Source: a virus | DNA: 25,777 bases | Virus genome (UHGV): UHGV-1341054 | Strand: one strand, 5' to 3' | Shown: positions 6,266 through 25,664 of the stretch, piece after piece | Numbering within the stretch: position 1 is the stretch's first letter | Layout: each line of letters opens with the position of its first letter | Notes under the pieces: model-generated | Seen by the model: the letters and a program-made list of their open reading frames with translations, nothing else | Told to the model about the DNA's origin: nothing | Databases searched by the model: none | Program-made: the position numbers and the translations under genes

Positions 6266-6331
6266 CAACATTAAGGAGACTCAGGGCAAAAGATACTCGC
6301 CACAAAAAATCCCTATGCCTCCTTAATGTTG
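6266..6331. repeat. Hairpin with 13-bp perfect stem (CAACATTAAGGAG ... CTCCTTAATGTTG)
   Basis: Perfect reverse-complement arms at 6266-6278 and 6319-6331 with a 40-nt loop; no adjacent T-run. Confidence 0.35.
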
Positions 6332-6552
6332 AGGATGTGCATTGATGATGACCCGAAGCAGCCTGGCCCACTAAGCACGTTTCTCTGCCAGATCATCATC
6401 ACTGCACGCCCTGAATGCATTGCCATCCGTGGCGTTGAGGTCGCTTGTTGTTTACTCCGCAAAATGCACTTTTGGAGAACACTTTATGGAGCATCATCAG
6501 TTCCTGCTGACCTGTTCTTGCCATTTGCACGGGCGCCTGGCTTACGCATTAT

Positions 6553-6579
6553 ATTTCTAACATTTTCATTTGTTAGAAG
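6553..6579. promoter_or_regulatory. Inverted pair of the recurring motif (ATTTCTAACA ... TGTTAGAAG)
   Basis: TTCTAACA and TGTTAGAA form an 8-bp inverted repeat with an 8-bp spacer. In minus sense the sequence reads ATGTTAGAAATATAATG, which contains a TATAAT -10-like hexamer. Confidence 0.35.
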
Positions 6580-6714
6580 TGCTGGTGGGTTAAGATTTGG
6601 CGAAAAAGAGTGACGCTCTACCTGCTGCAAGCCGTGTTGAGATATCACCCCACCAGCACGAAAAATTTTAGGACAACCACACAAAACAATCAATGTGTTA
6701 TTTTGTTCAACTCA

Positions 6715-6726
6715 AATTTCTAACAC
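6715..6726. promoter_or_regulatory. Recurring motif copy AATTTCTAACAC
   Basis: Exact copy of the 12-mer also found at 9140-9151; lies just downstream of the 6743 gene stop at the head of the noncoding region. Confidence 0.3.
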
Positions 6727-6742
6727 ATTAATTTAATGCCAA

Positions 6743-8063
6743 TCATCTCCCGTACAAATCTTCAACACCGCCGTTCTTTTTATCCCACTCATTCGCCCAT
6801 ACCCGACAGGAATCAATGATTTCCTGTCGGCAGTCGCCCTGCATGAATGGCAACTCGTCATGAAAGTTGCTTGGGATGCAGGCCACACTGAAAACAGTAT
6901 CAAATCCGGCGTCCTTGATGCCTTCCATCGTCTCAGGGCGCATTTTTAACTCGTCAACCGGGGCATCTTTGGCATCCATAATGCGTCGATGCAAGCGAGG
7001 ATAATCCTCTTCAAGGTACGCCATAATCTTATTGTGAAGGCATTCGTCGATGTCGTTGTTCCAGTCTTTGGCAAACTCAGGCATTCGGTAATAAAGTGGC
7101 GTTCCCCAAACTGACGGGATCACATCCATTGTCAGCAAACGGTTTGTTCTAATTTGCAGGTGATAGTTAGCAGTAAGTAATGATTCTCCCCGCTGTCCGG
7201 TTTCCATCTCAAGAAAGTCGTTTTTTTCCGCATGAATAAAATCTGNNNNNNNNNNGGCCATGTGGGTATTCGTGAATATAAGCAACCGCATCCCTGCCAT
7301 CGTACATGAGCGGGAAAGATTCCGGGCGTTCTGGCATACCGCAGGCGCGATTCAGATCATACCCAAGCTGAGAACATTCACTCTTTAACTTCTCGATGAT
7401 AGCCTGAGCAGAAGCAAGTTTCTTACGCAGGCTTACGTTCTCGCCCTGGTATTTAATGCTCACTTTGTTCAGTTCGGATACACGCTCTTTAAGTTCGCGG
7501 CGTTCTCTTTTAAGGGAACGGTTATCTCTCTCGCTGTCATCCAGGCGTTTTGCCAGGCTGGACGGGAAGTCTTTCTTATAGCGCCGTAAATCTGACTCTG
7601 CCGCTGCGCGTAGCGTGTTGGCCTGCTGGAGACTGGCTTCAAGTGTACCGATCTCTCTTTTATGCTGTTCTGCATACTCAGTAATGATTTCACCCAGCGT
7701 CTCCGCCGTGGCGCTCATACCGGTAGCATGGGAAAAACTGATCAGGCTGGCGTTAACGACACGCTGAAATTCTTCGAACTGATCAACCAGGGCGTTGTAG
7801 TCTGATGCACCCGCATCCAGTAGCTGATTGATGTCATTTACAAGGTTATCTGCTGTGGCAAGAGTGCTTTCAAAAAGGCGTTTTGACAGGTCATCTCCGG
7901 CAGTCCGCTTTTGTAACAACTGTATCTGGCTGCGGAGTGTATCGATATCCGCAGAAATGATGTCTTCNNNNNNNNNNATCAAGGACAAGGCAGAGTCAAT
8001 GGGTTGGAAAGAAGGTCAGAAATGATGTCTTCGGTGGAGGAGGTTACTGCTTGCTGACTCATG
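6743..8063 (-). CDS. Hypothetical protein, about 440 aa, N-terminal coiled-coil region; reading frame broken by two 10-N gaps
   Basis: ORF-track pieces 7209..7988 and 6743..7300 are protein-like only on opposite sides of the N run at 7246-7255, consistent with one gene and an arbitrary gap length. The likely true start is ATG at 8063 (SD AAGGA): MSQQAVTSSTEDIIS, whose EDIIS is encoded by a 16-mer duplicated either side of the N run at 7968-7977. Confidence 0.5.
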
Positions 8064-8693: not shown

Positions 8694-9167
8694 TTAAGTT
8701 AGATCAACATATTCCGTGATAGCTTTGATGGCTTCATCGGCACTTCGCGCCTCAAAGCAGTAGTAACCTGCTTCTGTGAGGCGTGTCATCCAGACGATTT
8801 GTTCGGGAGTTAGACGATTATTCCCTTGCTTCATCTCGATGCGCATTCCGTGATAACCGCCACGCGCAAGATCAATCGAAAGGTCTGGATAACCTTTCTT
8901 TTGCCCCTCAGCGACCATTTTGATAGCTGTCCTTATTCCACGAAGTCCTCCGTTCGGGGTGGCGTGTGTATGTTCGTACACATATCGCATGTGGCGATAG
9001 AGCCAATCCAGAACGCGAACCTGCTCGTAGTGTTCATGGTTCCCTTTGATTAGTTCGGGGTTATTTGCAAGCTCTAGAAGAGCGGCTGCGTGCAGGGTTT
9101 TTGCTTCAAATCCGTAATGGCGTCTTTTTGTTCGATTGTAATTTCTAACACATGTTATAGCTTTCAT
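8694..9167 (-). CDS. VRR-NUC domain nuclease (PD-(D/E)xK superfamily), 157 aa
   Basis: Motifs EHYEQVRVLDWL ... GYPDLSIDLARGGYHGMRIEMKQG ... LTPEQIVWMTRL match the VRR-NUC pattern (E...Q...WL, PDL, hExK). The N-terminal ~44 aa extension and exact start are uncertain; the AATTTCTAACAC motif lies inside codons 5-10. Confidence 0.7.
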   Translation of the reverse strand: MKAITCVRNYNRTKRRHYGFEAKTLHAAALLELANNPELIKGNHEHYEQVRVLDWLYRHMRYVYEHTHATPNGGLRGIRTAIKMVAEGQKKGYPDLSIDLARGGYHGMRIEMKQGNNRLTPEQIVWMTRLTEAGYYCFEARSADEAIKAITEYVDLT

Positions 9168-9326: not shown

Positions 9327-9593
9327 TCAATAGTTTATCTTATCCTGTTCGGTAATACTGCTAATTGTCTTATCAATGGCTACTTTCCACCCATCAAAGT
9401 TTAAATTATCAATACGCTCGACCAATTTATCCTCAGTATGAGGATAATAAATCCAACTCCATTCATTAGGACTATCAATCTTTATCAGTGTAAAAACACG
9501 CTTATAACGATGAAAGTCAAGTTCGTATCCCTTTGACAATGCGTAATCTTTTAGATCATCAATCGTGAAAAGCCGATTCTTTCGCATAATCAC
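9327..9593 (-). CDS. Hypothetical protein, 88 aa, in a visibly AT-rich segment (moron-like)
   Basis: ORF coupled to the upstream gene (ATGA overlap at 9590-9593); base composition looks more AT-rich than neighbours by eye. Confidence 0.5.
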   Translation of the reverse strand: MIMRKNRLFTIDDLKDYALSKGYELDFHRYKRVFTLIKIDSPNEWSWIYYPHTEDKLVERIDNLNFDGWKVAIDKTISSITEQDKINY

Positions 9594-10024
9594 CCCGCCA
9601 TGCTGTATTTTTCTATAGATTCGTCATAACTGGTGTACAGATACGGTTCTGTATCATCAGCATAGCTTGCGACTTCAAGTTGGTGGACCTGATTGTAAAC
9701 CGCATCGTTTTCCAGACGTTCTGCCGAATACAAATGCGCCGCGAGAAGAGTCAATGCCGGGCGACTCATGCTATAGATAGTTGCCACATCGCCATCCACA
9801 ATCTGACCAAAGTCAGTAATTCCGCGCTCCAGCAATTGCGTTTTGATAGCAGGCCACCACGGACCATACAGCCGGTACAATAACGGTTCTTTTTTCAACC
9901 TTTCGACCATTACGCCAAGATAGGCATCCAGGTATTCACCTTCTCCCCTGCCAACAAGTGCCTGTGGCAAAATTTCTTCAAGGTAAGATTCCGTTGGTTT
10001 TACTGTGTCGATCAATGTTGTCAT
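9590..10024 (-). CDS. Hypothetical protein, 144 aa, acidic C-terminus; immediately downstream of the DarB-like gene
   Basis: ATG at 10024, 36 nt after the giant gene stop; C-terminal third is rich in D/E/Y (EVASYADDTEPYLYTSYDESIEKY). Confidence 0.6.
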   Translation of the reverse strand: MTTLIDTVKPTESYLEEILPQALVGRGEGEYLDAYLGVMVERLKKEPLLYRLYGPWWPAIKTQLLERGITDFGQIVDGDVATIYSMSRPALTLLAAHLYSAERLENDAVYNQVHQLEVASYADDTEPYLYTSYDESIEKYSMAG

Positions 10025-10060: not shown

Positions 10061-13000
10061 TTAAGCCGCCGCTTCAATGATTTTACGCACTTCATCAATT
10101 GAATAGCGCGTCGATACCATCCAGGCCGGACGGTCAAAGTCCACATCGGCAACCGGGTTAACTTCGAAGTTCCAGAAACGCCCACCGATTTTCTTGATGG
10201 CATCTTTTGCGTTGCGAATAGATGAAGATCCGGGCATATCTGCAATGAGATAAACAGCACCAGCGTCTTCACTTACGCTCCACCAGCGACCGCGTACACG
10301 TGCTTTGGCGCGAATAGGCTTATCGTTTACCACGATAATGTAATCATCATTCGCTACCTCGTCAGCCTTGATCTCAGCTACATCAGCCTGTTCTTCCCGT
10401 TCAGTCTTAGCCGCCGCAAGACGTTCAGCAATCTCTGACTCCGTAGCGCCACCATTTTTAAGCGACACAAAGTCATCCCACGTTGCAGATTTCAGAGCAT
10501 CAGGCAAATCTTCCACATACCCGCCCGCTTTTAAGGCGTTAGCATGGCGTATAGCCATCCCGACAAGACGATTCAAGCTATATGCATCTGCGAAATCATC
10601 ACGGGTAATGCTTTTATCCTCAAATGCATGAATTAACGCCCCCGCTTTAATCCAGACTGTTGCAGATGTTTCAAGCGGATTATCGGCATTAGAAATGCTT
10701 AGTTGCGCACTGTAAACTGACTGATCTGCCAACGAGGCAAGTGACGCCCAACCATCTGCATCACTTTGCATTTTGTACTGATCAAACAGCGCATCACGCC
10801 ATGCATTTAGCGCCATGCGTGTTTTCTCAATTTTGGTTGTGATTTTGGACGTTCGCAGTTGTTCGAACATCTGCGAAATCTCCGAACCATTGGTGAAGGC
10901 TTTCATGCGCCCCTGGAAATCGCGGAAAGAAAGCACGCCTCGCCAGTACGTTTCCAGGCCTTCTCCATTTGGCTTGCGGAACAAGCTGCGGACATCTTCC
11001 TGAGTCACTTTTTCAAGTGAACGCCCGGAGAGATCGCGCCCTGCCATCCAGCCATCGAACGCCTTGACCACATCATCCATAGTGGCCTGAGCGCCCCATG
11101 CCTCCATACCTTGCTCATAATCGAAGCCAAACAATGCACGGAGAAAACCTTCTGCCTCTGAAATACGAAGTGGGTTATCACCTGTCTGGATTTTCGCGAC
11201 TTCGCGTTTTAATGCTTCGTCGTTTACATCAGGATAAATCCATTGTTCAGGTGCTATCTCGTCACTTCCAGATGCGCTAATTTTTTGACCAATCATCCCG
11301 CCATAGGTAAAGGCCATTTGAATCTGACCATTGGCGTTACGATAAGCCCAATAGTTTACATCCGGTGCTCCTTGCCAACCGCCACGATCTTTCCCGGTTA
11401 CCCGCATAACACCGCTACGAATAGCGTCATAGAATTGATCGCGAGAAAGAGAGGTTGAAAGCTGGTGGCTTTGAACACCACGTGCCGCTATTTCTCGTGA
11501 TTCAGCCACCCCCTCTTCAAATGTTACCGCTTCAACCACTGAGTCAAACGGTAATGTCATGGTTGAGCCAGGAGAACGAGAGTAGCGACTTGCTCTATCC
11601 AGCCAGGCGACGCGGCAGGTGTATTGCGCTTTTTCGCCCTCAATTTGTGTCACGCGCACAACCGCCGTTGTCTCGTGTTCAGCATCAATGACTGCACGGT
11701 AGTAACTACCTTTATGCAACAGGATGTTCTTGCCAGTGCGCATATACTCCTGCGGGTTCTGAATAACATCGATACTGATATCCAGCACACCAGACTTAAT
11801 AGCACGCTCCACATCACCACGAGAGCGTTTCATAACAGTATCCGCGTCCTTCGCCCTGGTGATTGCAAATCGCAATTCACGCACTCTTTTTTTAGCTTTG
11901 CTTAGTGCTGAAAGCGTATATTTCTGTCCGTTTTTGTTGGTGCCGCTCTTAATCAGTCCATCCAGATCACTCTGGTATCGTTGCGCCTGCTCCATCGCGC
12001 TTTTCAGTTCTGCCTCCATCATGCCGATATCCTTCCCGGCAGCATTCGCCGCTTTCAGGTAGTTATCGAGAGCATTATTGGCTTCGCGTTGCGCTTTAAG
12101 TCGCAGGCGTTCCTCACGTTCTTTCGACTGACGAGCCATAATTGCGCGTCGTTCTTCCGGATTTGCCGCCAGCATAATGGCGCGCTCATCAGCGTCATCC
12201 GCATCACCATTGGCGATCTCTGACATATCGGAGGTCATCACCATCTTGATCCAGTCTTTCTTACGTTTAAGCGTATCCAGACGGAAGTCATCGAATGTGC
12301 CTTTGCCACAATAATAGTGAACATTAACCTTCTCTTGCGGAGAACCTACGCGCGCACCGCGCCCATTTCGTTGGTCGATACTGGCTGGAGTCCAGGGTAG
12401 TGTCAGGTGGTGAATATCGGTCGTTCCAATATGCAGGTTGATACCTACTTCGGCTTTCTTGTTACAGATAATGATCCGCGTGCGCCCTTCGTTATAGTCG
12501 GCAGCAATACCTTCCATCCCCTCAAGGCCAGCATCATTTTTAGCAGAGAGATAATCCTCATATTGGGCCAGTTTACTGTAGTAGGTTTCCCATGCGCCTT
12601 CTTTGTATTCACCGTCTTTGTTTGGCGTCGGTTCGGTCGGTTTTTTGACCTTTTTCAGCTTAACACCACCAGCCTGGCTAACAGTCGTAGCATTGATAAT
12701 GCCTATCTCCTGCTCTGACATTTGCAACGCACTGGCAATGATGCGACGTAGTTTCTGGTGCTGGGCTTTCTCGTCGATAAAGATAATTTGCTTACCGTTC
12801 TTAAGCCCTTCACGCAGGTTCTCGATAAGTGCGGCATACTTAGGCGGGATCGGGTGTGACACCTGTTTCATGTCGATGCCTGCATCAGCAATTGCCTTGA
12901 GTATTTCAGCCTCCAGGTCAATGCTGGCACGCAATTCGACATGATTTGGATGCTCACTAAATGTTGTAGCTACAACCTTGCTGGTACGGGTACTGACCAG

Positions 13001-16000
13001 GCCTCCGGTCGCATCCTCCTCTGCTTCTTCTGCATCGTCTGCCGCTTTCCCACCAGCTACTTTTGGTAGGTTATTAGCTATAGACTTCACCTGTTCAGTA
13101 AGCTCTACAGGGAACTGGAATGTGATAGCGCTGGCGTAAAGATCCGGGTCGATAGCGACCTTATCCATGTCGCGAATGATAGAGAAAATGAAATCATCCG
13201 GTTTCCCGCGAGTGATATTGCCTTCATCATCGACAGTGACGTCATCACCACGACTTAACTCCTGCGCGCGTTTACGAAGCTCTTCATAAGCTGCTTGCTG
13301 CTCTGGAGTCATTGGGATCTGCAAGGTGTTTTCGACGATATCCGGGATTTTTACCGTTGCACCAACATCGGAAGCCGTTTTAAGCGTTGTCCAGCGGTGG
13401 AAAATGCCACGCAGACCATCAAGGTTCTGGAAGCCCACCAGCCCCTGTTTCTCTTCCACTTCGCCAGAAATTTTCTGGACCTGAACAGTGGCTGTTTTAC
13501 CGAACACTCGCACAAAGTCGTCAGGGGTAATAATCCCCATGTGCATCCACTCGTGCTGAGGGATCACCGTTGACAGCATGTTGAAGGCGTCAATAGGGCT
13601 ATTAACCAGCGGAGTTGCTGTCAGCATTACGACGCCGCGCCCATTGTGACGTTTCATCATGTACGCAGCTTTTACAGCCATGTCACGGGCCATTTTGGAT
13701 ACCGCCGGATTAGGTAAATATGCCAGTTGCCCCGCTTCACGCCCGGCACCAAAGGAGTTGCGGTAGTTGTGCCCTTCGTCGGCAATTACGCTATCGAAGT
13801 TCATATCCTCAAAGTACGGGATATTCTGCTTCTTCGCTGTACCGGTATTCGCGGCCTGGTCCTTAATCTTGTTCTTCTTCTGCGCATCACGGTGCTTGCC
13901 TGACGCCAGGTCAAGACGCCCCATTTCGGCGGCATTAAAGACAGCCTGCTGTGAGTTTTCTCCGATGGTTTCATCGCGCAACGGGATAGATGCGAACTGC
14001 TCTTTTGTCATGATGACCGTTCGCCAGTTCGACGATGGGATCATGTTCATGCGTTGAGCGATAACGGCACTGGCGGATTCTTTAACAACATTACGGGTGA
14101 TCGGATTGCCGTCGTTATCAAGTCGCGGGGTGCCGTCCTGGTCGAGCACTGGGGCAGTCTGAATATTTCCGTCACCATCGCGCACTTCGTCCAGACCGAT
14201 AAACATCATATTGGCGAAGGCATCTGCACTGTAGAAGCTCTGTGCCTCGTGATACCAGTTCTGGTATACGGCCTTTGGAACAACGATACAGGTACGTTTG
14301 GTTCGCCCGGTTTCAAAGTTATAGGCTTCCAGTGCCAGCGCGGTCGTCGTTTTACCCAAACCAGTTCCGAATCCCATAATCCCGCGCCCATCTTCCGACA
14401 GACGACGAACTTCTTCGTTCTGGTAAGAAAGCGGTATACGTTTCCCGCTGATGCCTTCAAGCCCCAGGGGTGCGTCTGAATGGGTAAATGGAATATAACC
14501 GTTAAAGGCGTCGTTATAATCGCGGGCGATCTGATCTGCCTGCGGGTGAGTTCTTAACCAGTCGTTAAAACTCGTCTCAAGCTGGGCGATTTTGTCCAGG
14601 TACTCGTTAGCGTTCTGTCCGCGCGGTTTAACACCGTTCAGGTAGTTCTCAAGCTGATTCAGGAAGCCATCTTTGTTATTCGCTTTCTTGAACTCGTTCC
14701 CGTTTTTGCCGTTTACGGTTCGTAGCTGGTAGCCAGTAAATACCCCGTCCTTACCTTCGTAATCGTCCGGGGATACCAGAATGCCGTTCTCAACCTTAAG
14801 GTCGGGTTCTGTATACTTAAACTCGTCATAGCCCTGCTCTGCCAGGAACTCTTTTATCAGGCGGCGATCCAACCACCGTGCGTTAAGGTTTACCGTGACT
14901 TTGTTCAGCGGTGTAAACGTGCGTTTCTCTTCGATTTTTGAAAGCTGGCGCTCAAAGTTGGCCTTCCGCTCTCCTGTGGACGCGTCTCGCCAGCCCACCA
15001 GCAGTGCCACTTTTGATTTAATATCACCGCTAGTGGCACGGCCCATCGGTAGCAGGCAACCATATCCATCAATAGCGATATCGTCGAATTTCGCCAGGTA
15101 TTCCAGTGCTTCATCGTCGTCTTCGGGCAGTTCGCCTTTAAACGCCTCGCGGAAGTCATCAAGATTGATAGGATTAAGGGCAACATCGCTGAAAAGGTGT
15201 GTCACAACCTGTTCCGGACGAGTGAAATCAATACCAGCAGCCCCTTTGCTAACATCAAGCCGTCCGGACAGCAGATCGGATGCTTCACCGTCCTGATTGA
15301 CGTTCCCGGTGAATGTCAGCCAGTTCTTCGCGCCCGCTTCGGTAATATCGTTTAGCTTAATAGCGTGTGGTGGGCCATATTTAGCAACTTCGGCAGCCGT
15401 CAGACGTGCGGCATCAGCCAGTTCATCATCGACGTTTTCACCAAGGTTACGCTTATCCAGCGCTTTATTGATAAGTTGTCCGATCAGCGCACCGCGCATA
15501 ATGCGCTCACGGTCTTTTTCGCGTTGTTTCCCAGCAAAGCGAATCATTGCCGCTACTTCATCACTGATAACCGATGGATAGTCGGAAGCGATCGCGGATA
15601 TCTGCCCCCATGACAGAGCCAGAATGCCGTTTGTTGATTGGAACGTTGTTTGCAGATCACCGAATGTCGAAACACCATATCGGCTTACATCAAGTACGGA
15701 GGATTTGGTTGTCGCATCTTTAACCCATTTCAGGCCATCAAACTCGTGCCAGATGCCACCTACAAGGCGCTTATCTCCTACTTTGGCACCCTGCCATGCC
15801 TGAGTAGTTACGCCAAGCAAATCCCAATTAATGCGGCTTTCAAAGCGGCGCGATAGAGCGGTTTTCATCGACTCATTGGATACACGACCGTCCTTTTTCA
15901 CCACCAGGGTGTTGCGGAAGCTGGTGCGTTCCATGTCGCCGTAAACGAATCGCTTCCCTTCGGTTGTAAACCACTTGCCTTTCAGAAAGGTATCCCAAAG

Positions 16001-16903
16001 GACATTTGCCGATTTTAGCGTCGCATCATCCGTATCGGGGATCATCTCCAGGAAGGCTTCCGGGTGTTTACGCAATACCCATACGTCCACAACTGTATCT
16101 GTACCGGATTCGCTGAACGTACCGGAAGGCATACGATGTGCGCCCAGAAATTCCGCTTTACGACTAACCTTGTCACGCAGTTTCTTGTATTTAGTGCCGT
16201 CGGTCATGCCGTTAGGCACCACCAGCACGATCAGTCCGCCAGGTTTAACCTTGTCAATGGTACGAAGCACAAAGTAGTTACCTACGTTCTTTTCGTTCGC
16301 ATAGGCAGGATCTAATCCAGCCACACCGGAACGACCTTCCCCGAACGGCACATTACCCACCGCGTGGTCATACATTGCGTCTTTGGCTGCAAGCGACTCA
16401 AACGCTCCGATATTCACATCATCTTCCGGGTGCAATAACTGGTTAATTCGACCAGAAATCGGAGACAATTCGGCGCTCGTCATTATCATTCCCTGCCGCT
16501 TCGTCTCCTGGAAAATTCCCGTACCCGCTGACGGTTCAAGAACATGACCGCTATCAATGCCGTAATCCGAAAATAAATCCCAGATACCTTCTGCCATAAA
16601 TTGCGGCGTGTAATACTCGTACTGACTTCCTTCGCCATCCGTCAGACCACCTTCCCCGGTGTATCCTGCAAGGATCTGACGCTGTTCGTCTGTCAACTGA
16701 GAGCCATCGAAACCGGGAGGCAAAGCGTTAAGAAGATTGACTGCCGCGTTATTAGCTGCCCGGCGAGTCTTCTGAATGCTGACGCCATCTACCTTCTTAA
16801 CGCCGAAGGCGGCGATTGCACGTGGTTTATGTAACCGACTGATAAGGTCAATCAGTCCACCAATGCTGGTGGCTGCATTGATTGAATTGAGTAATTTGTC
16901 CAA
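10061..16903 (-). CDS. darB: Giant 2280-aa protein: N-terminal N6-adenine methyltransferase domain plus SF2 helicase, DarB-like antirestriction protein
   Basis: Single uninterrupted 6.8-kb ORF. MTase motif I VLEPSAGTGIF and motif IV GNVPFG near the N-terminus; helicase Walker A GFGTGLGKTT, motif II VIADEGHNY, motif III LTATPLVN, motif VI QRNGRGARVG. Size and architecture match P1 DarB (2255 aa) as recalled. Plus-strand ORFs inside are antisense shadows. Confidence 0.8.
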   Translation of the reverse strand: MDKLLNSINAATSIGGLIDLISRLHKPRAIAAFGVKKVDGVSIQKTRRAANNAAVNLLNALPPGFDGSQLTDEQRQILAGYTGEGGLTDGEGSQYEYYTPQFMAEGIWDLFSDYGIDSGHVLEPSAGTGIFQETKRQGMIMTSAELSPISGRINQLLHPEDDVNIGAFESLAAKDAMYDHAVGNVPFGEGRSGVAGLDPAYANEKNVGNYFVLRTIDKVKPGGLIVLVVPNGMTDGTKYKKLRDKVSRKAEFLGAHRMPSGTFSESGTDTVVDVWVLRKHPEAFLEMIPDTDDATLKSANVLWDTFLKGKWFTTEGKRFVYGDMERTSFRNTLVVKKDGRVSNESMKTALSRRFESRINWDLLGVTTQAWQGAKVGDKRLVGGIWHEFDGLKWVKDATTKSSVLDVSRYGVSTFGDLQTTFQSTNGILALSWGQISAIASDYPSVISDEVAAMIRFAGKQREKDRERIMRGALIGQLINKALDKRNLGENVDDELADAARLTAAEVAKYGPPHAIKLNDITEAGAKNWLTFTGNVNQDGEASDLLSGRLDVSKGAAGIDFTRPEQVVTHLFSDVALNPINLDDFREAFKGELPEDDDEALEYLAKFDDIAIDGYGCLLPMGRATSGDIKSKVALLVGWRDASTGERKANFERQLSKIEEKRTFTPLNKVTVNLNARWLDRRLIKEFLAEQGYDEFKYTEPDLKVENGILVSPDDYEGKDGVFTGYQLRTVNGKNGNEFKKANNKDGFLNQLENYLNGVKPRGQNANEYLDKIAQLETSFNDWLRTHPQADQIARDYNDAFNGYIPFTHSDAPLGLEGISGKRIPLSYQNEEVRRLSEDGRGIMGFGTGLGKTTTALALEAYNFETGRTKRTCIVVPKAVYQNWYHEAQSFYSADAFANMMFIGLDEVRDGDGNIQTAPVLDQDGTPRLDNDGNPITRNVVKESASAVIAQRMNMIPSSNWRTVIMTKEQFASIPLRDETIGENSQQAVFNAAEMGRLDLASGKHRDAQKKNKIKDQAANTGTAKKQNIPYFEDMNFDSVIADEGHNYRNSFGAGREAGQLAYLPNPAVSKMARDMAVKAAYMMKRHNGRGVVMLTATPLVNSPIDAFNMLSTVIPQHEWMHMGIITPDDFVRVFGKTATVQVQKISGEVEEKQGLVGFQNLDGLRGIFHRWTTLKTASDVGATVKIPDIVENTLQIPMTPEQQAAYEELRKRAQELSRGDDVTVDDEGNITRGKPDDFIFSIIRDMDKVAIDPDLYASAITFQFPVELTEQVKSIANNLPKVAGGKAADDAEEAEEDATGGLVSTRTSKVVATTFSEHPNHVELRASIDLEAEILKAIADAGIDMKQVSHPIPPKYAALIENLREGLKNGKQIIFIDEKAQHQKLRRIIASALQMSEQEIGIINATTVSQAGGVKLKKVKKPTEPTPNKDGEYKEGAWETYYSKLAQYEDYLSAKNDAGLEGMEGIAADYNEGRTRIIICNKKAEVGINLHIGTTDIHHLTLPWTPASIDQRNGRGARVGSPQEKVNVHYYCGKGTFDDFRLDTLKRKKDWIKMVMTSDMSEIANGDADDADERAIMLAANPEERRAIMARQSKEREERLRLKAQREANNALDNYLKAANAAGKDIGMMEAELKSAMEQAQRYQSDLDGLIKSGTNKNGQKYTLSALSKAKKRVRELRFAITRAKDADTVMKRSRGDVERAIKSGVLDISIDVIQNPQEYMRTGKNILLHKGSYYRAVIDAEHETTAVVRVTQIEGEKAQYTCRVAWLDRASRYSRSPGSTMTLPFDSVVEAVTFEEGVAESREIAARGVQSHQLSTSLSRDQFYDAIRSGVMRVTGKDRGGWQGAPDVNYWAYRNANGQIQMAFTYGGMIGQKISASGSDEIAPEQWIYPDVNDEALKREVAKIQTGDNPLRISEAEGFLRALFGFDYEQGMEAWGAQATMDDVVKAFDGWMAGRDLSGRSLEKVTQEDVRSLFRKPNGEGLETYWRGVLSFRDFQGRMKAFTNGSEISQMFEQLRTSKITTKIEKTRMALNAWRDALFDQYKMQSDADGWASLASLADQSVYSAQLSISNADNPLETSATVWIKAGALIHAFEDKSITRDDFADAYSLNRLVGMAIRHANALKAGGYVEDLPDALKSATWDDFVSLKNGGATESEIAERLAAAKTEREEQADVAEIKADEVANDDYIIVVNDKPIRAKARVRGRWWSVSEDAGAVYLIADMPGSSSIRNAKDAIKKIGGRFWNFEVNPVADVDFDRPAWMVSTRYSIDEVRKIIEAAA

Positions 16904-16977
16904 AGGAGATCCCCTTCAAAGCCGTGAACTCCGCACATTGCGGTACGGCTTGAAAGGGTATGGAGTGTGTTAATTTG

Positions 16978-17057
16978 GGATAACAAAGTTGGCACCCAAA
17001 ACCGCCATTCATTAATGGAGTAGGTTTTAGCGTGCCCGGATAACAAATATGGCTGCC
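16978..17057. promoter_or_regulatory. Divergent control region: two direct repeats GGATAACAAAnnTGGC 60 bp apart flanking a short palindrome
   Basis: GGATAACAAAGTTGGCACCC (16978-16997) and GGATAACAAATATGGCTGCC (17038-17057); between them AAAACC ... CCATTCATTAATGG ... GGTTTT. Lies between the divergent starts at 16903 (minus) and 17114 (plus). Confidence 0.3.
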
Positions 17058-17113
17058 ATGAAAATCACACACTCCCCATAGTTTATGTTCGTTTGTTAAC
17101 CAGAGGAGTAGTT

Positions 17114-17599
17114 ATGGTGAGTACCGATCCTCGTTGGCTGATGGAAGCCCGTAAACATATTGGCCTGACAGAAATCAAAGGGGCTAAACACAATCCTGAA
17201 ATCGTCCAGTTCTGGCGAGACATCAAGCGCGGCGGCATTAAAGATGATGAAACGCCGTGGTGCGCGGCCTTTGTTGGCGCAATGTTAGAGCGTGTTGGTA
17301 TCCGTTCCAGCCGCTTCGAGTCAGCAAAATCCTACCTGACATGGGGTGAGGCGCTCGATACGCCAGCGTATGGATGTATTGCTGTATTTACTCGCGTGGG
17401 CGGCGGGCATGTCGGCTTTGTCGTTGGTCGCCGGGCGAATGGTGATTTGCTCATTCTTGGGGGCAACCAGGGCGATGCCGTGAATATCCGCGCTTTCCCA
17501 ACATCGCGCGTTTCAGGTTATCGCTGGCCTACTGGAGAACCACGGAATACTGCCTTACTTCCTAATGGTGAGGCCGCCACATCCACCAGCGAAGCGTGA
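17114..17599 (+). CDS. TIGR02594-type (NlpC/P60- or CHAP-like) putative peptidoglycan hydrolase, 161 aa
   Basis: Preferred start ATG 17114 with SD GAGGAG (ORF track gives TTG at 17093). Motifs DDETPWCAAFVGAML, GGGHVGFVVG and LGGNQGDAV fit the conserved Cys/His hydrolase pattern of this family. Only clear plus-strand gene in the window. Confidence 0.7.
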   Translation: MVSTDPRWLMEARKHIGLTEIKGAKHNPEIVQFWRDIKRGGIKDDETPWCAAFVGAMLERVGIRSSRFESAKSYLTWGEALDTPAYGCIAVFTRVGGGHVGFVVGRRANGDLLILGGNQGDAVNIRAFPTSRVSGYRWPTGEPRNTALLPNGEAATSTSEA

Positions 17600-17606
17600 C
17601 TCCACA

Positions 17607-17634
17607 CCCCGGTACAGGCCGGGGTTTCTGTATT
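17607..17634 (+). terminator. Rho-independent terminator for the plus-strand hydrolase gene
   Basis: CCCCGG-TACAGG-CCGGGG followed by TTTCTGTATT, 8 nt after the stop; sits between convergent genes. Confidence 0.5.
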
Positions 17635-17656
17635 AAGCTGTCATAATTTACCCACA

Positions 17657-18619
17657 TCATCCTCGGAATCCAGCAGGGATACGCCACTCACGATCATCAA
17701 ACTCAGTTTTGGTGCCTCGTTGTTTCATGAGCTTTAACGCCTCGTCAACGGTCTGGCAGCCCTGATAGGCCGAATAATCCATTGAAAAATCCAGCCCGTT
17801 GGCAGTCTTATTGGCCTTTCCCGCATTCCCTGTCCCGCGAATCCAGGCAATTTTATGAGCTAACTTTTCAGCAGCCCGATGTAGTGACAGACGTTTCGCG
17901 TGGCGGTCGTCAGCCTGACGTTTAGCGGATCGCGCTTTTGCAGCAGCTATGCGGCTGTTTATCTGCTCTTCGCTAACAACATGCGCTTCACTCAGAAAGT
18001 CTGGATTTAACTGAGTGGACACCGCCTGGGAAGCCTTTGGCTGAACCTGGCATGATCTTTCTCTTTTTTTGGTTACGGTTTTATTCTTCTTTTCTATTGG
18101 TTGTTCATCATGAACACGGGGGGAGTTGTTCATTTTGAACAGGGGGGCATTGACCTCAAAAAAAGAACGTACCTTTGAAATCAGTTGCTTAACCAGTTTC
18201 GTGGCATTAACAATTTTGACGCCCTGCTTACGTCCAGTCTCCAAAACGATGGAAATAAACTGGAGGAAATCAGGGGTGAAGCGGTAGACATTACAAACCT
18301 GAGCATTGTTACTGCCAATCTGATGTTGCTTGGTGAGCATTCCACATTTAACAGCCTCAGAAAATGCACGGCGAACGGTGGAGACGCTACGGCCCAGAAT
18401 GGCAGCCATATCAGCATAAGAGCGACGGATTATGTATTCGTCAGTTGACCCTGCCAGGTTGGAAAATTCGGCAATGATCGAACCGTGTGTTGGCGACAGG
18501 AATCCACTGTGCCGGGCAAAGAAACTTAGCTGGTGGCCTTTGATATGCTTATGGTACTCAGCGTTGCCTTTCCGCTCAAAAATGTTGAAAGTGATGGCAT
18601 CTGAATTTAAAATATCCAT
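17657..18619 (-). CDS. HTH-containing protein, possible replication initiator (Rep-like), about 320 aa
   Basis: Preferred start ATG 18619 with SD AAGGA (ORF track start 18652 lacks an RBS). Segment YADMAAILGRSVSTVRRAFSEAVKCGML is a typical winged-HTH; C-terminal region is basic and K/R-rich. Function is inferred. Confidence 0.55.
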   Translation of the reverse strand: MDILNSDAITFNIFERKGNAEYHKHIKGHQLSFFARHSGFLSPTHGSIIAEFSNLAGSTDEYIIRRSYADMAAILGRSVSTVRRAFSEAVKCGMLTKQHQIGSNNAQVCNVYRFTPDFLQFISIVLETGRKQGVKIVNATKLVKQLISKVRSFFEVNAPLFKMNNSPRVHDEQPIEKKNKTVTKKRERSCQVQPKASQAVSTQLNPDFLSEAHVVSEEQINSRIAAAKARSAKRQADDRHAKRLSLHRAAEKLAHKIAWIRGTGNAGKANKTANGLDFSMDYSAYQGCQTVDEALKLMKQRGTKTEFDDREWRIPAGFRG

Positions 18620-18725
18620 CTGTAATCCTTGATATATCAATGCGAGTTCCAAGTTTTGGTATATCAGCGTGGGTGTCTAAGACCTACGCCTCTGATAAAT
18701 CTACTCAAATAGATTTATCGCCCTC

Positions 18726-18749
18726 AAAAGCCGCCCCCCAGCGGCTTTT
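18726..18749. terminator. Bidirectional rho-independent terminator
   Basis: AAAAGCCGC-CCCCCA-GCGGCTTTT, with A/T runs on both sides; downstream of the 18866..19861 gene. Confidence 0.55.
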
Positions 18750-18815
18750 GTTCTTTCTACGCCCATCAAACTGAGCAACGAACGCGATCCTACCCGAAAC
18801 ATTAATCACTAATCA

Positions 18816-18848
18816 ACAGTGTATATTAATACACTGTGTTAGAAATTT
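18816..18848. promoter_or_regulatory. Perfect 22-bp palindrome abutting a copy of the recurring motif (GTGTTAGAAATTT), candidate operator or origin-proximal site
   Basis: ACAGTGTAT-ATTA-ATACACTGT (9-bp arms, 18816-18837), immediately followed by GTGTTAGAAATTT (18836-18848), upstream of the Rep-like gene. Confidence 0.4.
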
Positions 18849-18865
18849 AATTTAATCAAAAAGAC

Positions 18866-19861
18866 CTAACGTCGCGAAACAAAGATCAACGGGCTTACAT
18901 TCTTGTTGTTTTGAGATAGTGCTTGCTGCTTCTCTCCTTTCGTAACAGGCAGGCCATACGTTGCATTTACCCCCAGAGACTCAAGCATCGCTGCCACAAT
19001 TCGGGCGTCATCTTCTGACTGCATCCGACATAATGCACGGCGTTGCTCTGCACTGATGAATACAGGCATTTCCTGGATAGCGTCACGCAGGATACGACGG
19101 CATTTCTTCGCATCTTCACCCTGGCTTTCCATCATTGCTGTCTGAGCGCGTAGCTTGTCGCGAAGCTGCATGTTTTCCACTTCAAGGAGCATCAATTCTG
19201 ATTCCAGGGCTTCACGCTGTACTGATTCGAGCATGGCTTGCTGACTCTTCATTGCTGAGAAGTGATGCACAAGATCGGTGGCAGCATTATCTGTAAAGCC
19301 CTGAGCAATAAGCGCCGCGTGAATTGCAGCCTCTCTCTCCTCTGCTGACTCAAGCATCAGGCTTTTCTTGTCAAGGCTGATATAGTTAGGCACCGTCACA
19401 TAATCGAAACCATGAAACGACTTCACCATGGAGACTGAGGAATCCGGTCCAGATGTCGCCCATGACCACCCACCAGCACCTGAATTAATCATCCCCTGCA
19501 CTATACGCCCGGTATCGGTATCCAGAATTTCCTGTGTATGCGTAACAACACCATTGTCATCAACTGAAATATCAATCGTCCTGTTAGATGGTACGTTTTC
19601 AAGAACTACAGGCTTTCCATCCACCATGACGACTGAAACTTCTGGCAAATTAAGACTTTTGGTTTTGTCGTAATGCATTGCGCGGCGACCGTGGCCGTAA
19701 TAGCCATACATTTCACCGAGCGCAATCCTCTCTTTCGTCTCAGGATAATTCAATGTCTCCCGCACCGACTGAATAACGTAATTTCGGTTGTTTTGCGGCG
19801 TATGCTTACGAATTTTCTCGACCAAAGAGAAGCGATCCGTAACGGTGTTCAGTGATTGCAT
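18866..19861 (-). CDS. Hypothetical protein, 331 aa, coiled-coil C-terminal half; possible head morphogenesis protein
   Basis: ATG at 19861 with strong SD GGAGGG; tightly linked to the upstream 560-aa gene (13-nt spacer); followed by a terminator. Confidence 0.65.
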   Translation of the reverse strand: MQSLNTVTDRFSLVEKIRKHTPQNNRNYVIQSVRETLNYPETKERIALGEMYGYYGHGRRAMHYDKTKSLNLPEVSVVMVDGKPVVLENVPSNRTIDISVDDNGVVTHTQEILDTDTGRIVQGMINSGAGGWSWATSGPDSSVSMVKSFHGFDYVTVPNYISLDKKSLMLESAEEREAAIHAALIAQGFTDNAATDLVHHFSAMKSQQAMLESVQREALESELMLLEVENMQLRDKLRAQTAMMESQGEDAKKCRRILRDAIQEMPVFISAEQRRALCRMQSEDDARIVAAMLESLGVNATYGLPVTKGEKQQALSQNNKNVSPLIFVSRR

Positions 19862-19874
19862 TCATTCCCTCCGG

Positions 19875-21628: not shown

Positions 21629-22990
21629 TTACCTATGACTATTTTCGAACATCGAAAGACTCAATCCTTTCCCTTCACCAAATTCAGTTTCAATCTCATC
21701 GGAAACGGCAGACAAAATGCTACGCAGATCGACATCTCCGCCGCCGAACATATCGCCTAACGCTTGTTGCTGGTGAATAAGCTCATCGTTAATTTTTTGC
21801 GCCAGTTTCTTGAAAGCGGCCCCCATACGCTTAGCGCTTCTGTTGTTGGCAACAATAAACAGAGCAAGCGCTTCCGCTTCCGGAGTGCTATCTCCAAACA
21901 ATCCGCGCTGTGCGATCACCTCTTCTACTGCCTGACCGTTATCTTTTGCTTCACGAACAAGGTTAATTGCTTCCTGTAGCGCGGCAATAGCCTGTTTATC
22001 CAGACCATTCAATTGCTCTATGCCGTCTACCAGTCCGGTTACCGTGTCATGGTGAACATCGCCTGAAAGTGACTGCATTTGCGCAAAATCGCTGGCTGCC
22101 GTATTTAATGCGGTAAGGATGTTACGCATTTCCGGATCTGGCTCTTCCGCCACCAGCCGAACAAGCCTTTCATCCTTGTACGCTTTGGCAAAAATTGCAT
22201 TCTGGATGCGGTCGATAAGTTGTTTCGTTGGACGCCCATCGGCAGTAAGCAAACCTGCCGTCGCCGTATCACCTATTTCGCGCAAAAACGCACGAATAAA
22301 CGCATCATTGGACCGCGCCAGTAGATTTCCATCATCTGAAGGATTAAATAGCGCCATGACGCTCTCAGTGAGAAATTGCGCATCCGCATACGCTTTTTCA
22401 CTTGCAGCCATCTCTTGCAGATCGCTGATGTTTGAATCGCGGGCAAATTGTGCGCGGTCTACATCTGTGAGTCTTTCTCGCACCAATACGGGCATAGACA
22501 TTTGTGAAATGTCGTCAGGATTCAGACCAAACTCTTTTGCATGATCGATCAGGTACTGGCGATATTCATCCGCCTGCCCTTGCTCATAGGCACGCCAGAT
22601 ACCCATGCTCCTTCCGTTGCCGGATTCAACAACGTTGTCCGGACCAACTATCGGCGCTCCGTGGCTGCTCATGCCGGAATCCGTTAATTGTGCCGGGCGT
22701 AAATTGGAGGCAATACGGTTAACCTGGAGTTTGCTTGATAGCCGTGTACGGTCACGTGGCTGGAGTTCTTCCGGGAAGGCCGGATTAATCGTACCGTCAA
22801 GGTTGTTCGAAATGATCAGACTGCTGGCATCAACGACCTTAAAAGCCGTCTTTACCTCTGCCCCTTTACTGGTGACTACGTAACTACTGCGCCCCTGGCG
22901 TGTTTCTCGCCTCTCTAATGAAGAAACCAGCGCAATAACACTGTTAATGTCTGCTGCTTCGGATAGCGCGGAAGTAACTGACTTGTTCAA
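21629..22990 (-). CDS. Hypothetical protein, 453 aa (TTG start)
   Basis: TTG start at 22990 preceded by SD-like AAGGGGAG; no in-frame ATG nearby; function unknown. Confidence 0.55.
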   Translation of the reverse strand: MNKSVTSALSEAADINSVIALVSSLERRETRQGRSSYVVTSKGAEVKTAFKVVDASSLIISNNLDGTINPAFPEELQPRDRTRLSSKLQVNRIASNLRPAQLTDSGMSSHGAPIVGPDNVVESGNGRSMGIWRAYEQGQADEYRQYLIDHAKEFGLNPDDISQMSMPVLVRERLTDVDRAQFARDSNISDLQEMAASEKAYADAQFLTESVMALFNPSDDGNLLARSNDAFIRAFLREIGDTATAGLLTADGRPTKQLIDRIQNAIFAKAYKDERLVRLVAEEPDPEMRNILTALNTAASDFAQMQSLSGDVHHDTVTGLVDGIEQLNGLDKQAIAALQEAINLVREAKDNGQAVEEVIAQRGLFGDSTPEAEALALFIVANNRSAKRMGAAFKKLAQKINDELIHQQQALGDMFGGGDVDLRSILSAVSDEIETEFGEGKGLSLSMFENSHR

Positions 22991-23059
22991 AATACACTCC
23001 CCTTACATAGAAAGCAGGAAGTGTAAAAAGTGTGTGATTTATGGACTTACACGAAAGTG

Positions 23060-23081
23060 AAAGGGGCATTTCAGCCCCTTT
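23060..23081 (-). terminator. Candidate terminator or stable hairpin after the 122-aa gene
   Basis: AAAGGGGC-ATTTCA-GCCCCTTT, 3 nt downstream of the stop at 23084, with a short T-rich tail. Confidence 0.4.
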
Positions 23082-23083
23082 GA

Positions 23084-23452
23084 TTACCCTGCATAACCGT
23101 TGGCTTTCACCCAGCTTATGGTCTGCTCTTTAGCCTGTTCCAACGTAAGGAACTCGCCTACATAGTTTGAGATCCCACGTAGCGCATCAATAAATTCCAT
23201 TTGCGTGGACTTTGTGAATGCACCTCCAAGGAAGTCTGTCACTATCTTAGGAATGTCACCTGCAACAGTATCTGGCTGCGCCTGCGGATCCGATACTGAT
23301 TGGGCCGCAGCCCCAAGCCCCAGTTTAAGCATCACATCAACAATCTGCTTACCAATTGAGACGCGTTGCAATACTGGCGCGGTTTTCTGCGCCTGCATTA
23401 GATCTGATAGCTCTTTACCTAATTTCAGGCGTTCTAAAACAGAGATAGCCAT
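23084..23452 (-). CDS. Hypothetical protein, 122 aa
   Basis: ORF whose start overlaps the stop of the upstream 645-aa gene at 23452. Confidence 0.55.
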   Translation of the reverse strand: MAISVLERLKLGKELSDLMQAQKTAPVLQRVSIGKQIVDVMLKLGLGAAAQSVSDPQAQPDTVAGDIPKIVTDFLGGAFTKSTQMEFIDALRGISNYVGEFLTLEQAKEQTISWVKANGYAG

Positions 23453-25389
23453 TAAGCACCTCCCTGCTGAATTTCAGCCAGAATATTGATCAGGTAGTCA
23501 ACGGCTGCACCTACAGTTGCTTCGTTCTCGTCATATCGACCAGCACTGATAAGAGCGTTTGCAGCTTCCTGCACATGATCAAGTTCAGCACTTATGACCG
23601 TCAGATCGCGGGATGTGAACTGCTCCGGAACGGATTTCAGGTACTCAAGCGCTTTATCTGCTTCCTGGTCAGCTTCGCTTGCTGATTCACCCGCTTCTTC
23701 TGGCTCCGGCTCCTGTTCTGGTGCTGGTTGCGATTCTCGCTCAACTACAGGATCTGTTTTTACTTCGCTTGAATGATTTTGAAGGGCGTTATACACGTCC
23801 ATAATGAAAAGGTTCTCCCCATCACCAAGTGGATATGCCACGTTCGGGAACGCTTTGCGGAAAAGAATTTTAACTTGCGCCTTGAATGTTTTCAGGTCTC
23901 TTCCAAACAGATCTACATAGCCATCAATATGTTTTACCATGCTGGACGCAACCAGCTCGTTCGCCATCCCCTTCAGTTCATCGTCATCAGGCAGATAGCG
24001 TAATTCATACTGGCTGACTTCTTTATCTGTCAGTTTTCGGTCATAAGTAATTATCCCGTGACGAGCATATTCGTAATACGGATCCGCCTGGTCAGGACGG
24101 TCAAGTACGCCTTTATTTCCTTCCGGTACCGCACCTACAGCCGCCGGACGGGATTGCAGTGCATAGCGATATTTACCTACATCCTGAGTCTCTGGCTGTG
24201 ATACTGATTGCGGCCCAGGTTGTGGTTCTGGATCTGGTTGTAGTTCCGGCTGAACGGATGGCTCTGGCTGGCCTGGCAACACATCCACTTTGTATTGTTC
24301 AGCTTTATGTTCGCGATAGGCTTTCAGTAGTTTTGTTGCGGCATCAGCCTTGCTCTGACCATTAACGTCGCTTGCTTTAATGCTGTAGTTGCCTTCTGGT
24401 GCTGCTATGGTGACATAATTATCAGCACCAGTGCTGACGTACATAACCTCGGCTCCATTATCAAGCGTCGCTCGACCTTCGGTAGAAAGATTGCTTTTCA
24501 CCCGGCGCAACTGGTCGTTGAACGCTCGTTCCGGTTTCACCTTTTCTTTTGCTGATTTAAGTTGATCACGTTTGGCCTGCAACTGTGCATTAAGTGCTTT
24601 CTGGTCATCTAATTTTTTTTGCAGTTCGACAAGGCTTTCTCGCTTTTCAGCTAAACCTTGTTGCGCTGTATCTACCTGGCCAATCAATACAGAACGCTCT
24701 TCTGCCAATTTGTCGGCTTCATTTAGATAACCGTCAATATCTGCCTTCATTTTGTCCTGACGGGCTTTAGCTTTTTTGAACTTTTCACTATTGCGCTCAA
24801 TCAGGTTCGATAGCGCCTGGCATACCTGACTCAATGAAACATCTCGTCCGCCGATGGGGGCTACTACATGAGTTACATTGCGTTTATTAAGCAGGAACTG
24901 GAAAGCCACCAGTTCATCGCTGCTTTTAATCTTTGCACTGTCTGCCGTGGGGGAATGGAAGATAATGCTGGTGGTCTGACCGTCAGTAAGCGGGATAAGT
25001 GCCGTTAATACCGGAATGTTTGCTACCCGACGAACACGACCGATTATCGCTCCACCAATGCTGTTTCGCCCATTCTCATCTTCGCCAACTTCATCAGTAC
25101 CGGCAGATATATTTGTACCGTTGAGGCCTCGGTTTAGTGAGCGGACAAATGCCCGCATGGTCTGCGCAAGCCTGATCCTCGTCGTTGTGATGGATTCAAA
25201 CATCGCCTCATCGCTTTCAACGAGAATTTCATTACCCATATAGGCGAGTTCGATGTCTTCAAGCGTAGCGGCTTCGAGGAGAAGGTCATCATCAGTAAGC
25301 TCTTCACGACTCCATCTTCCTGGGACGTACCCCGTCAACGTGTCAGCAAAGGTGGACTGAATATTTATACGAATAGGATTTTTAATCAT
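23452..25389 (-). CDS. Hypothetical protein, 645 aa, with central coiled coil and P/E/Q-rich linkers
   Basis: Long ORF; coiled-coil stretch around KLAEERSVLIGQ...LQAKRDQLKS; linkers PGQPEPSVQPELQPDPEPQPGPQ and ESQPAPEQEPEPEE; start overlaps the stop of the upstream gene (ATGA). Confidence 0.65.
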   Translation of the reverse strand: MIKNPIRINIQSTFADTLTGYVPGRWSREELTDDDLLLEAATLEDIELAYMGNEILVESDEAMFESITTTRIRLAQTMRAFVRSLNRGLNGTNISAGTDEVGEDENGRNSIGGAIIGRVRRVANIPVLTALIPLTDGQTTSIIFHSPTADSAKIKSSDELVAFQFLLNKRNVTHVVAPIGGRDVSLSQVCQALSNLIERNSEKFKKAKARQDKMKADIDGYLNEADKLAEERSVLIGQVDTAQQGLAEKRESLVELQKKLDDQKALNAQLQAKRDQLKSAKEKVKPERAFNDQLRRVKSNLSTEGRATLDNGAEVMYVSTGADNYVTIAAPEGNYSIKASDVNGQSKADAATKLLKAYREHKAEQYKVDVLPGQPEPSVQPELQPDPEPQPGPQSVSQPETQDVGKYRYALQSRPAAVGAVPEGNKGVLDRPDQADPYYEYARHGIITYDRKLTDKEVSQYELRYLPDDDELKGMANELVASSMVKHIDGYVDLFGRDLKTFKAQVKILFRKAFPNVAYPLGDGENLFIMDVYNALQNHSSEVKTDPVVERESQPAPEQEPEPEEAGESASEADQEADKALEYLKSVPEQFTSRDLTVISAELDHVQEAANALISAGRYDENEATVGAAVDYLINILAEIQQGGA

Positions 25390-25664
25390 GCTTCATCCTC
25401 CAGCCGTGCTATCTCTTCTTTCAGCGAGCGTGTTTGGGCTTGCTCTTGTGCCAAAGCAGCTTTGACATTTCCAATCTCCTGGGTGGTTTTATCGGAGTTG
25501 CCCTGTACCTGCGTCAGTTTTTCTTTCGCCTGCGCTATATCCTCCTGGATTGAATCACGCGCCTGTTTTGCTTCCGCAAGTTTCTGTGAATTCGATTTCA
25601 CACCCTGACGTTTTTTGTTGTCGTCATCAATATTCTTCGCGGCTCTGGCGAGTTTACGTGCCAA
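25386..25664 (-). CDS. Coiled-coil protein, at least 92 aa (TTG start as given; true start uncertain)
   Basis: K/E/Q/A-rich heptad-like sequence. Protein-like translation continues upstream of the TTG to an in-frame TAG at 25755-25757 with no intervening start codon. Confidence 0.4.
   Translation of the reverse strand: MARKLARAAKNIDDDNKKRQGVKSNSQKLAEAKQARDSIQEDIAQAKEKLTQVQGNSDKTTQEIGNVKAALAQEQAQTRSLKEEIARLEDEA

Follow-up and report, generated by a model that had tools for sequence, protein, structure and literature searches.

DarB and related antirestriction proteins

The DarB protein of phage P1 is a head protein present in ~40-45 copies per virion (PMC9024508, PMC12810830). It leaves the virion together with the DNA, and protection from type I restriction by EcoB and EcoK depends on it (PMC9024508, PMC12810830). 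The Dar proteins of P1 are packaged in a defined order (PMC12810830), DarB being the last to enter, preceded by Hdf/DarA, DdrA and DdrB and accompanied by Ulx, a protein required in turn for the function and localisation of DarB (PMC9024508, PMC12810830). The N-terminal 30 amino acids (aa) of DarB suffice to target a reporter to capsids (PMC9024508). The gene described here lies on the minus strand at 10061..16903 of a stretch of 25,777 nucleotides (nt) from the virus genome UHGV-1341054, hereafter ‘the window’. A sequence-only reading had proposed that it encodes a 2280-aa methyltransferase-helicase fusion of the DarB type, set in a gene context unlike that of P1.

The combination of an LPD36 motif, a methyltransferase (MTase) and a SWI2/SNF2 module, termed a ‘dyad’, was described by Iyer et al. 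in 2017 (PMC5512222), and their proposal is that the SNF2 translocase carries an adenine methylase like those of EcoKI or TaqI along the injected DNA (PMC5512222). Polyvalent proteins of the dyad type, including the ‘DarB-like’ proteins of Bcep22-like, Ralstonia and other phages, share this LPD36-MTase-SNF2 core with the protein encoded in the window, and tblastn matches them over its residues ~66-1640 at 24-33% identity. They are without the C-terminal region of the P1/D6 type, and many of them bear other effector domains instead.

A D6-type darB on a P1-family plasmid prophage

The gene is very probably the darB of a D6-like, P1-family plasmid prophage of Shigella dysenteriae or Escherichia coli, whose product would be packaged, be ejected and counter restriction in the manner of P1 DarB. 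It is an ordinary member of a known and already annotated family. At 99.5% identity the window matches non-mobilizable S. dysenteriae plasmids of ~80 kb; its identity is 98.5% to one E. coli plasmid and 92-95% to plasmids of E. fergusonii, and it also matches >800 P1-family plasmid records at lower identity. Aligned with Escherichia phage D6, it forms eight collinear blocks of 75-83% nucleotide identity that cover nearly all of its length.

The DarB of D6 (MF356679.1, D6_15, ASR76325.1; Gilcrease and Casjens 2018; 2278 aa) has 86.7% full-length identity to the 2280-aa protein of the window, and its gene shares the TTG start and the catalytic motifs. The record for D6_15 reads ‘defense against restriction, similar to P1 gene darB’. 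Closer still is WP_134806030.1, a ‘SNF2-related protein’ of equal length encoded by a complete circular plasmid of S. dysenteriae 96-265, which differs at three residues. The call of darB in itself therefore adds nothing new, the gene being annotated in D6 and near-identical RefSeq proteins being listed as ‘SNF2-related protein’; the name DarB can now be given to those entries, and the name Ulx to the acidic protein encoded next downstream. The neighbours, too, are those of D6: ulx and orf13 lie on the downstream side and a divergent gene for a CHAP/peptidoglycan hydrolase on the upstream side, beyond which come repL, pro and prt and then the ddrB-ddrA-darA-hdf operon.

The P1 protein (AAQ13985.1, 2255 aa) is 43% identical and collinear by BLASTP over window residues 1-1937 and, together with the match to D6, confirms the assignment to the DarB type that had been made from motifs and size. 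Pairwise similarity to P1 DarB is absent from residues ~1938-2143, after which a weak collinear match links the last 125 aa of the P1 protein to the last 137 aa of the window protein (27%, E 0.006). The gap is bridged by the intermediates P0032, P0028 and P0015, so that the two proteins are collinear over their whole length. P0032 (2280 aa) can be aligned over its entire length with each of them, at 42% identity to the window protein and 48% to P1 DarB, and P0016 matches the C-termini of both. Collinear with the window protein are thus D6 DarB, P1 DarB and three other representatives of 2280-2289 aa.

The ORF listing and translation give a single open reading frame (ORF) of 2280 codons, with a TTG start and without an internal stop; at ~50% GC its length is far above chance expectation. 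A Shine-Dalgarno sequence, GAAGGGGA, lies 7 nt upstream of the TTG, and the N-terminus (MDKL...) aligns to Met1 of P1 DarB (MNKL...) and to the TTG start of D6 darB. The only N runs in the window, at 7246-7255 and 7968-7977, are both outside darB, so the gene contains no scaffold gap. Translation, the motif set and Pfam matches all bear out the uninterrupted MTase-helicase ORF.

The methyltransferase and translocase core

From its N- to its C-terminus DarB consists of a presumptive capsid-targeting segment, an LPD36 motif, a gamma-class N6-adenine MTase, an unassigned linker of ~530 aa (residues 290-820), a SWI2/SNF2 translocase and a family-specific C-terminal region of ~600 aa. Codons 1-30 (16814..16903, minus strand) are the positional equivalent of the capsid-targeting sequence of P1 DarB (PMC9024508). 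The LPD36 GxGU motif, the YYTP sequence and the MTase core with motifs I and IV are encoded at 16040..16666 on the minus strand, as defined by motif search, by Pfam and by the description of Iyer et al. 2017 (PMC5512222). The LPD36 motif reads GYTGEGG at residue 80 and is followed by YYTP at 97, by MTase motif I (LEPSAGTG) at 122 and by motif IV (GNVPFG) at 183, with NVPF itself at 184. The closest PDB sequence to the MTase part is a type I M subunit, 7eew.

The SWI2/SNF2-type helicase/translocase module spans residues ~826-1674 (11881..14428, minus strand) and was delimited by motifs, Pfam, the profile of the DISARM protein DrmD and a structural model. It carries helicase motifs I (GTGLGKTT, residue 846), Ia (VVPK), II (DEGH, 1042), III (TATP, 1095), V (AEVGINL, 1484) and VI (QRNGRGARVG, 1511). 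A large insert separates the two RecA lobes, and the helices after motif VI match the DrmD SNF2 profile; since that profile aligns to residues 1468-1674, the module reaches ~135 aa past motif VI. D6 and P1 DarB have every one of these LPD36, MTase and SNF2 motifs in identical form. Matches above the Pfam gathering score are to N6_Mtase (residues 151-281), SNF2-rel_dom, ResIII and Helicase_C (1464-1520), and neither a nuclease nor a PLD domain is among the Pfam and profile matches of DarB.

The C-terminal region

The sequence-only reading had found no recognisable motif in the last ~800 aa and suggested that they might carry a distinct activity or a packaging signal. There is indeed no Pfam (E<=1), NCBIfam or PDB phmmer match beyond about residue 1675, only sub-threshold noise, but the first ~135 aa of the stretch belong to the SNF2 module, and the part that is truly unassigned comes to about 600 aa. 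This family-specific region, delimited by alignment and models, comprises residues ~1681-2280 and is encoded, with the stop codon, at 10061..11863 on the minus strand.

A HMMER search with residues 1700-2280 against 1.84 billion representative proteins returned 20 clusters, all of them DarB-sized proteins of enterobacterial type or fragments of these. The exhaustive search of representatives was needed, as a word-indexed search with the same residues gave only fragments of close relatives. Because P0032 and P0016 match both the window and the P1 C-termini, the C-terminal regions are homologous throughout the DarB family. On these alignments every DarB orthologue, that of P1 included, possesses the region, which is conserved and specific to the family, and a foreign addition is excluded.

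AlphaFold2 models the region with confidence. Residues 1541-2280 have a mean predicted local distance difference test (pLDDT) score of 83.2, and residues 1896-2280 a pLDDT of 85.7 with a predicted template modelling (pTM) score of 0.71. Long helical hairpins (residues ~1541-1705) are followed by a small SH3/Tudor-like beta-barrel (~1712-1793), an alpha/beta module (~1799-1885), an all-alpha domain (~1896-2183) and a terminal alpha/beta domain of four strands and helices (~2188-2280). Comparison of the C-terminal models with known structures gave no enzyme-like fold match, and the domain map of the C-terminal third, now described, contains no domain with a known enzymatic relative. Conservation in the multiple alignment is concentrated in a few patches, YPDxxDxxLK at 1890-1899, LFGxDY at ~1924-1929, N2005, and K2237 and W2261 in the terminal domain. 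The C-terminal ~600 aa would thus seem to be non-catalytic, family-specific interaction domains.

That these ~600-800 aa instead hold a separate enzymatic activity or a capsid-packaging signal is unlikely. The idea draws on ~600 residues that match no Pfam, NCBIfam or PDB sequence and yet are under selection (see below) and fold confidently, and on the YPDxxDxxLK motif, which is strictly conserved. However, invariant columns number 25/601 in the C-terminal region against 489/1679 in the rest of DarB, and a recognisable catalytic pattern was not seen; with no enzyme-like fold, and with the region conserved in every orthologue including that of P1, a distinct activity is not borne out. As to packaging, the signal of P1 DarB resides in the N-terminal 30 residues, which are sufficient for the packaging of a reporter (PMC9024508). 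The P1 truncations covered the N-terminus only, and no C-terminal truncation of DarB was found in the published work, so that a second, C-terminal requirement for packaging would be compatible with them (PMC9024508). A set of interaction domains nevertheless remains the preferred reading of the region.

Selection and allelic exchange

Identity between window and D6 DarB is 90-98% in the enzyme cores and 58-84% beyond residue 1600; to P1 DarB it is 10-25% beyond residue 1600. Against D6, Nei-Gojobori ratios of nonsynonymous to synonymous substitution (dN/dS), which are rough as dS is near saturation, are 0.03-0.05 for residues 1-1540, 0.11-0.19 for residues 1541-2145 and 0.075 overall, and lie below 0.2 in every segment of darB. 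Since the ratio is low along the full length, the whole ORF is constrained coding sequence. The C-terminal third is relaxed 3-5-fold relative to the enzyme cores and is the fastest-evolving part of DarB, purifying selection still being present.

The end of the gene also differs from its beginning in how it is distributed. In a set of ~120 D6-like plasmids, 5 are >=99% and 113 are ~71% identical to the window over the final 1020 nt of darB, and the corresponding figures for the first 1020 nt are >=99% in 6 and ~84% in 109, so the C-terminal allele of the window is a minority type in this set. One E. coli database fragment, P0001, is of the window type (97-100%) as far as residue ~1935 and of the D6 type (97-100%) from 1936, a crossover that coincides with the end of pairwise similarity to P1 DarB. 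Because of the allele split and this crossover, residues ~1936-2280 (10064..11098, minus strand), defined by BLAST, the allele counts and P0001, behave as a recombining, exchangeable allelic cassette. This cassette-like behaviour and the domain content of the C-terminal region are the mildly new point of the analysis; the remainder was already known.

It is possible, if rather doubtful, that residues ~1936-2280 form a specificity cassette, a non-enzymatic module whose targets would be certain type I restriction complexes of the host or, alternatively, Ulx or DdrB as cognate capsid partners. The 3-5-fold higher dN/dS, the allele split, the recombinant at ~1935 and the confident folds without known relatives can all be offered for it. 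Were it so, the cassette alleles carried by D6-like and P1-like plasmids would decide which restriction systems the phage-plasmid evades. The cassette behaviour of the last ~345 aa in any case provides a handle, through allele swaps, on how DarB blocks type I restriction.

How D6-type DarB may act

The intactness of the gene, its motifs, its orthology and synteny, the selection on it and the folds that it encodes were observed directly; in packaging, ejection and antirestriction D6-type DarB probably acts like its P1 orthologue, from which these properties are carried over. The 250-kDa protein would be made late, and its N-terminal segment would direct its entry into the procapsid. Loading would depend on Hdf/DarA, then on DdrA and DdrB, and also on the co-transcribed Ulx. 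Tens of copies would be ejected with the DNA and would shield it in cis against the type I systems of the host (EcoK/EcoB-type restriction).

The biochemical core of this protection would be an SNF2-type translocase of double-stranded DNA coupled to a gamma-class N6-adenine MTase and tracking along the entering DNA. Such a tracking DarB could either modify the DNA or block or displace the restriction complex. The C-terminal ~600 aa would supply an interaction set made up of a helical scaffold, an SH3/Tudor-like barrel and a small alpha/beta domain, which is fast-evolving and subject to cassette recombination. The translocase-plus-methylase mechanism is an inference, as is the part that the C-terminal region would play in interactions.

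Several points weigh against carrying the P1 model over in full. Packaging and antirestriction by D6-type DarB are extrapolated from a protein that is 43% identical. The targeting signal is assumed from its position because, of the first 30 residues, only 7 are the same as in P1 (7/30, compared with 19/30 for D6). The packaging pathway may differ because the DdrB homologue of the window is half the length of the P1 type; its 453 aa match positions 9-442 of the 995-position P1-type profile phrog_2299, that is, the N-terminal ~45%. MTase motif IV is NVPF, the canonical form being NPPY/F, and methyl transfer itself is for this reason unproven. The mechanism of DarB is described as undefined even for P1, and assays with plasmid-borne darB are confounded by a restriction alleviation that is driven by Chi and EcoKI sites and does not require the DarB protein (PMC11109961).

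The P1 darB gene is reported to contain 11 Chi sites, which drive this protein-independent alleviation when the gene is cloned (PMC11109961). In the window, Chi (GCTGGTGG) is strongly over-represented, with 19 sites against 0.74 expected; 13 of them are on the minus strand and 8 fall inside 10061-16903. No avoidance of EcoKI sites was seen (3 sites against 3.6 expected).

Gene context

The first gene downstream of darB, in the same orientation, is ulx (9590-10024, minus strand), which encodes an acidic protein of 144 aa. The sequence-only reading had noted the small acidic gene without recognising it as ulx. The product is 50% identical to P1 Ulx (E 1e-47) and matches phrog_1629, a ‘Ulx-like’ anti-restriction family (E 2e-52). 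An 88-aa ORF at 9327..9593 on the minus strand, the homologue of D6 orf13 and a member of phrog_6844 (function unknown), overlaps the stop of ulx, and a terminator-like hairpin (9317-9288) lies downstream of it. Because of this overlap and the hairpin that follows, darB, ulx and the orf13 homologue look like one transcription unit, of which the 88-aa ORF is probably the last gene.

Upstream, the divergent hydrolase gene of the sequence-only reading is present at 17093-17599 on the plus strand, and its 168-aa product has a CHAP domain by Pfam. It is followed by repL, a single ORF of 331 aa at 17657-18652, co-oriented with darB, and by the homologue of pro, the head-processing protease of the D6 and P1 annotation, at 18866-19861 on the minus strand. 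Together pro and prt lie 2-4.6 kb upstream of darB, in the same orientation. The best PHROG match of the Pro homologue is phrog_1801, which is labelled ‘tail fiber protein’; the annotation in D6 and P1, and the place of the gene beside the portal gene, make an error in this label likely.

A second Dar operon, recognised by Pfam, by PHROGs and from the D6 record, occupies 21629..25664 on the minus strand. It comprises a ddrB-like gene with a ddrB-ParB domain by Pfam (21629-22990), ddrA with a DdrA-like PHROG match (23084-23452), darA with Pfam domains DarA_N and DarA_C (23452-25389) and hdf, a Hdf-like PHROG member that lies from 25386 onward and is cut by the end of the window, all of them on the minus strand. 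The packaging partners Hdf, DarA, DdrA and DdrB are thus all encoded within the window, as are lpa and pacA, and the late and Dar genes follow the D6 order.

In P1, pro and prt are divergent from darB, which is followed by ulx, lxc and then EcoP1 mod and res. In the window, head-morphogenesis genes follow ulx instead, and the CHAP gene and repL intervene between darB and pro/prt. The earlier view that the context is unlike P1 therefore holds for the flanks, which are rearranged, but not for the functional pair darB-ulx, which is conserved. Nor is the context new, because the gene order is exactly that published for D6. Three segments of D6 are absent from the window: orf17/antirepressor/icd between the hydrolase gene and repL (17553-17657 against D6 stretch 19412-21033), orf23/orf24 between prt and ddrB (21611-21645 against 24943-26054) and the tciA/tciB-tRNA-Ser segment (~4580 against 6099-6903). 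Instead of the last, the window has a tRNA-Met at 4276-4351.

It is very improbable that the protein is a plasmid-borne enzyme of host defence, a DISARM DrmD/DrmMI-like or type ISP-like MTase-helicase acting in a restriction-modification-like way to protect the host, and not a virion antirestriction protein. MTase-SNF2 couples are known in defence systems too (PMC5512222), and the helicase C-lobe gives partial matches to the anti-phage models DrmD, DpdE, ZorD and PLD-anti-phage. These matches are far below the cut-offs and concern the generic helicase lobe only; the C-lobe and the post-motif-VI helices (1468-1674) align to DrmD with 49.2 bits against an NCBIfam equivalog cut-off of 610, so DarB is not a DrmD member. 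In DrmD and other SNF2-like defence helicases both the context and the remaining architecture are different. No nuclease or PLD domain accompanies the helicase of DarB, and the gene sits with ulx among late head and Dar genes as it does in P1 and D6. Moreover, its product is an orthologue, over the entire length, of a protein whose presence in virions of P1 has been demonstrated.

The intergenic region between darB and the CHAP gene (16904..17092) contains an inverted pair of the motif GGAGTGTGT(T/G)A, at 16962-16972 on the plus strand and 17065-17075 on the minus strand, and D6 keeps the pair. These may be candidate regulatory sites, either of a divergent promoter or for a regulator. They are unlike the P1 late-promoter box AAGTGAYT, and no P1-type late promoter (AAGTGAYT with a -10 element) was found upstream of darB. 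A sigma-70 scan of the same region gave uninformative output.

A further side observation concerns a gene beyond the transcription unit. In the pmgM-like ‘putative morphogenetic function’ protein encoded at 8694-9167 on the minus strand, Pfam recognises a VRR-NUC nuclease domain (E 6.6e-7). The protein also matches a PHROG whose annotation is Holliday junction resolvase, and both findings suggest that it serves in DNA processing and not as a structural component.

Assembly and annotation

The thought that the long ORF is an artefact of assembly or frameshift fusing separate MTase and helicase genes, prompted by a scaffolded draft in which two N runs artificially split another gene and by relatives in which darB is annotated in pieces (‘N-6 DNA methylase’ plus ‘SNF2-related protein’ or hypothetical), can be dismissed as next to impossible, as 10061-16903 is free of N runs, an ORF of the same length with three aa differences lies on a complete circular plasmid, the full-length orthologues of D6, P1 and the three representatives of 2280-2289 aa are collinear, and dN/dS stays below 0.2 throughout. 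An apparent 9-kb degenerate palindrome centred in darB was also rejected, the anti-diagonal BLAST hits being ordinary matches to the oppositely oriented darB of P1.

The two N runs are scaffold joins, with flanks of ~40-50 nt that either find no counterpart in the 99.5%-identical Shigella plasmid or repeat its sequence. They split a pmgS-like head-morphogenesis gene into overlapping ORFs at 6743-7300 and 7209-7988. Both NZ_CP026818 and D6 have an intact copy of 403-407 aa, and the view that the gene is a frameshifted pseudogene was rejected, since the split coincides with the two 10-N gaps and the gene is whole in the 99.5%-identical plasmid. In the same S. dysenteriae plasmid, NZ_CP026818, repL is annotated in two pieces (18000-18961), in the window as one ORF. 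Split annotations of repL and darB among relatives may reflect either indel errors or real pseudogenisation, varying between assemblies.

Genes for tRNA-Thr and tRNA-Asn lie at 5313-5465 of the window and are placed by ARAGORN on the minus strand, in the orientation of the genes around them. For D6, the genes for tRNA-Ser, tRNA-Thr and tRNA-Asn (record 7145-7850; D6 stretch 6847-7552) are likewise on the minus strand by ARAGORN and on the plus strand in the feature table, the latter probably being a strand slip in the annotation.

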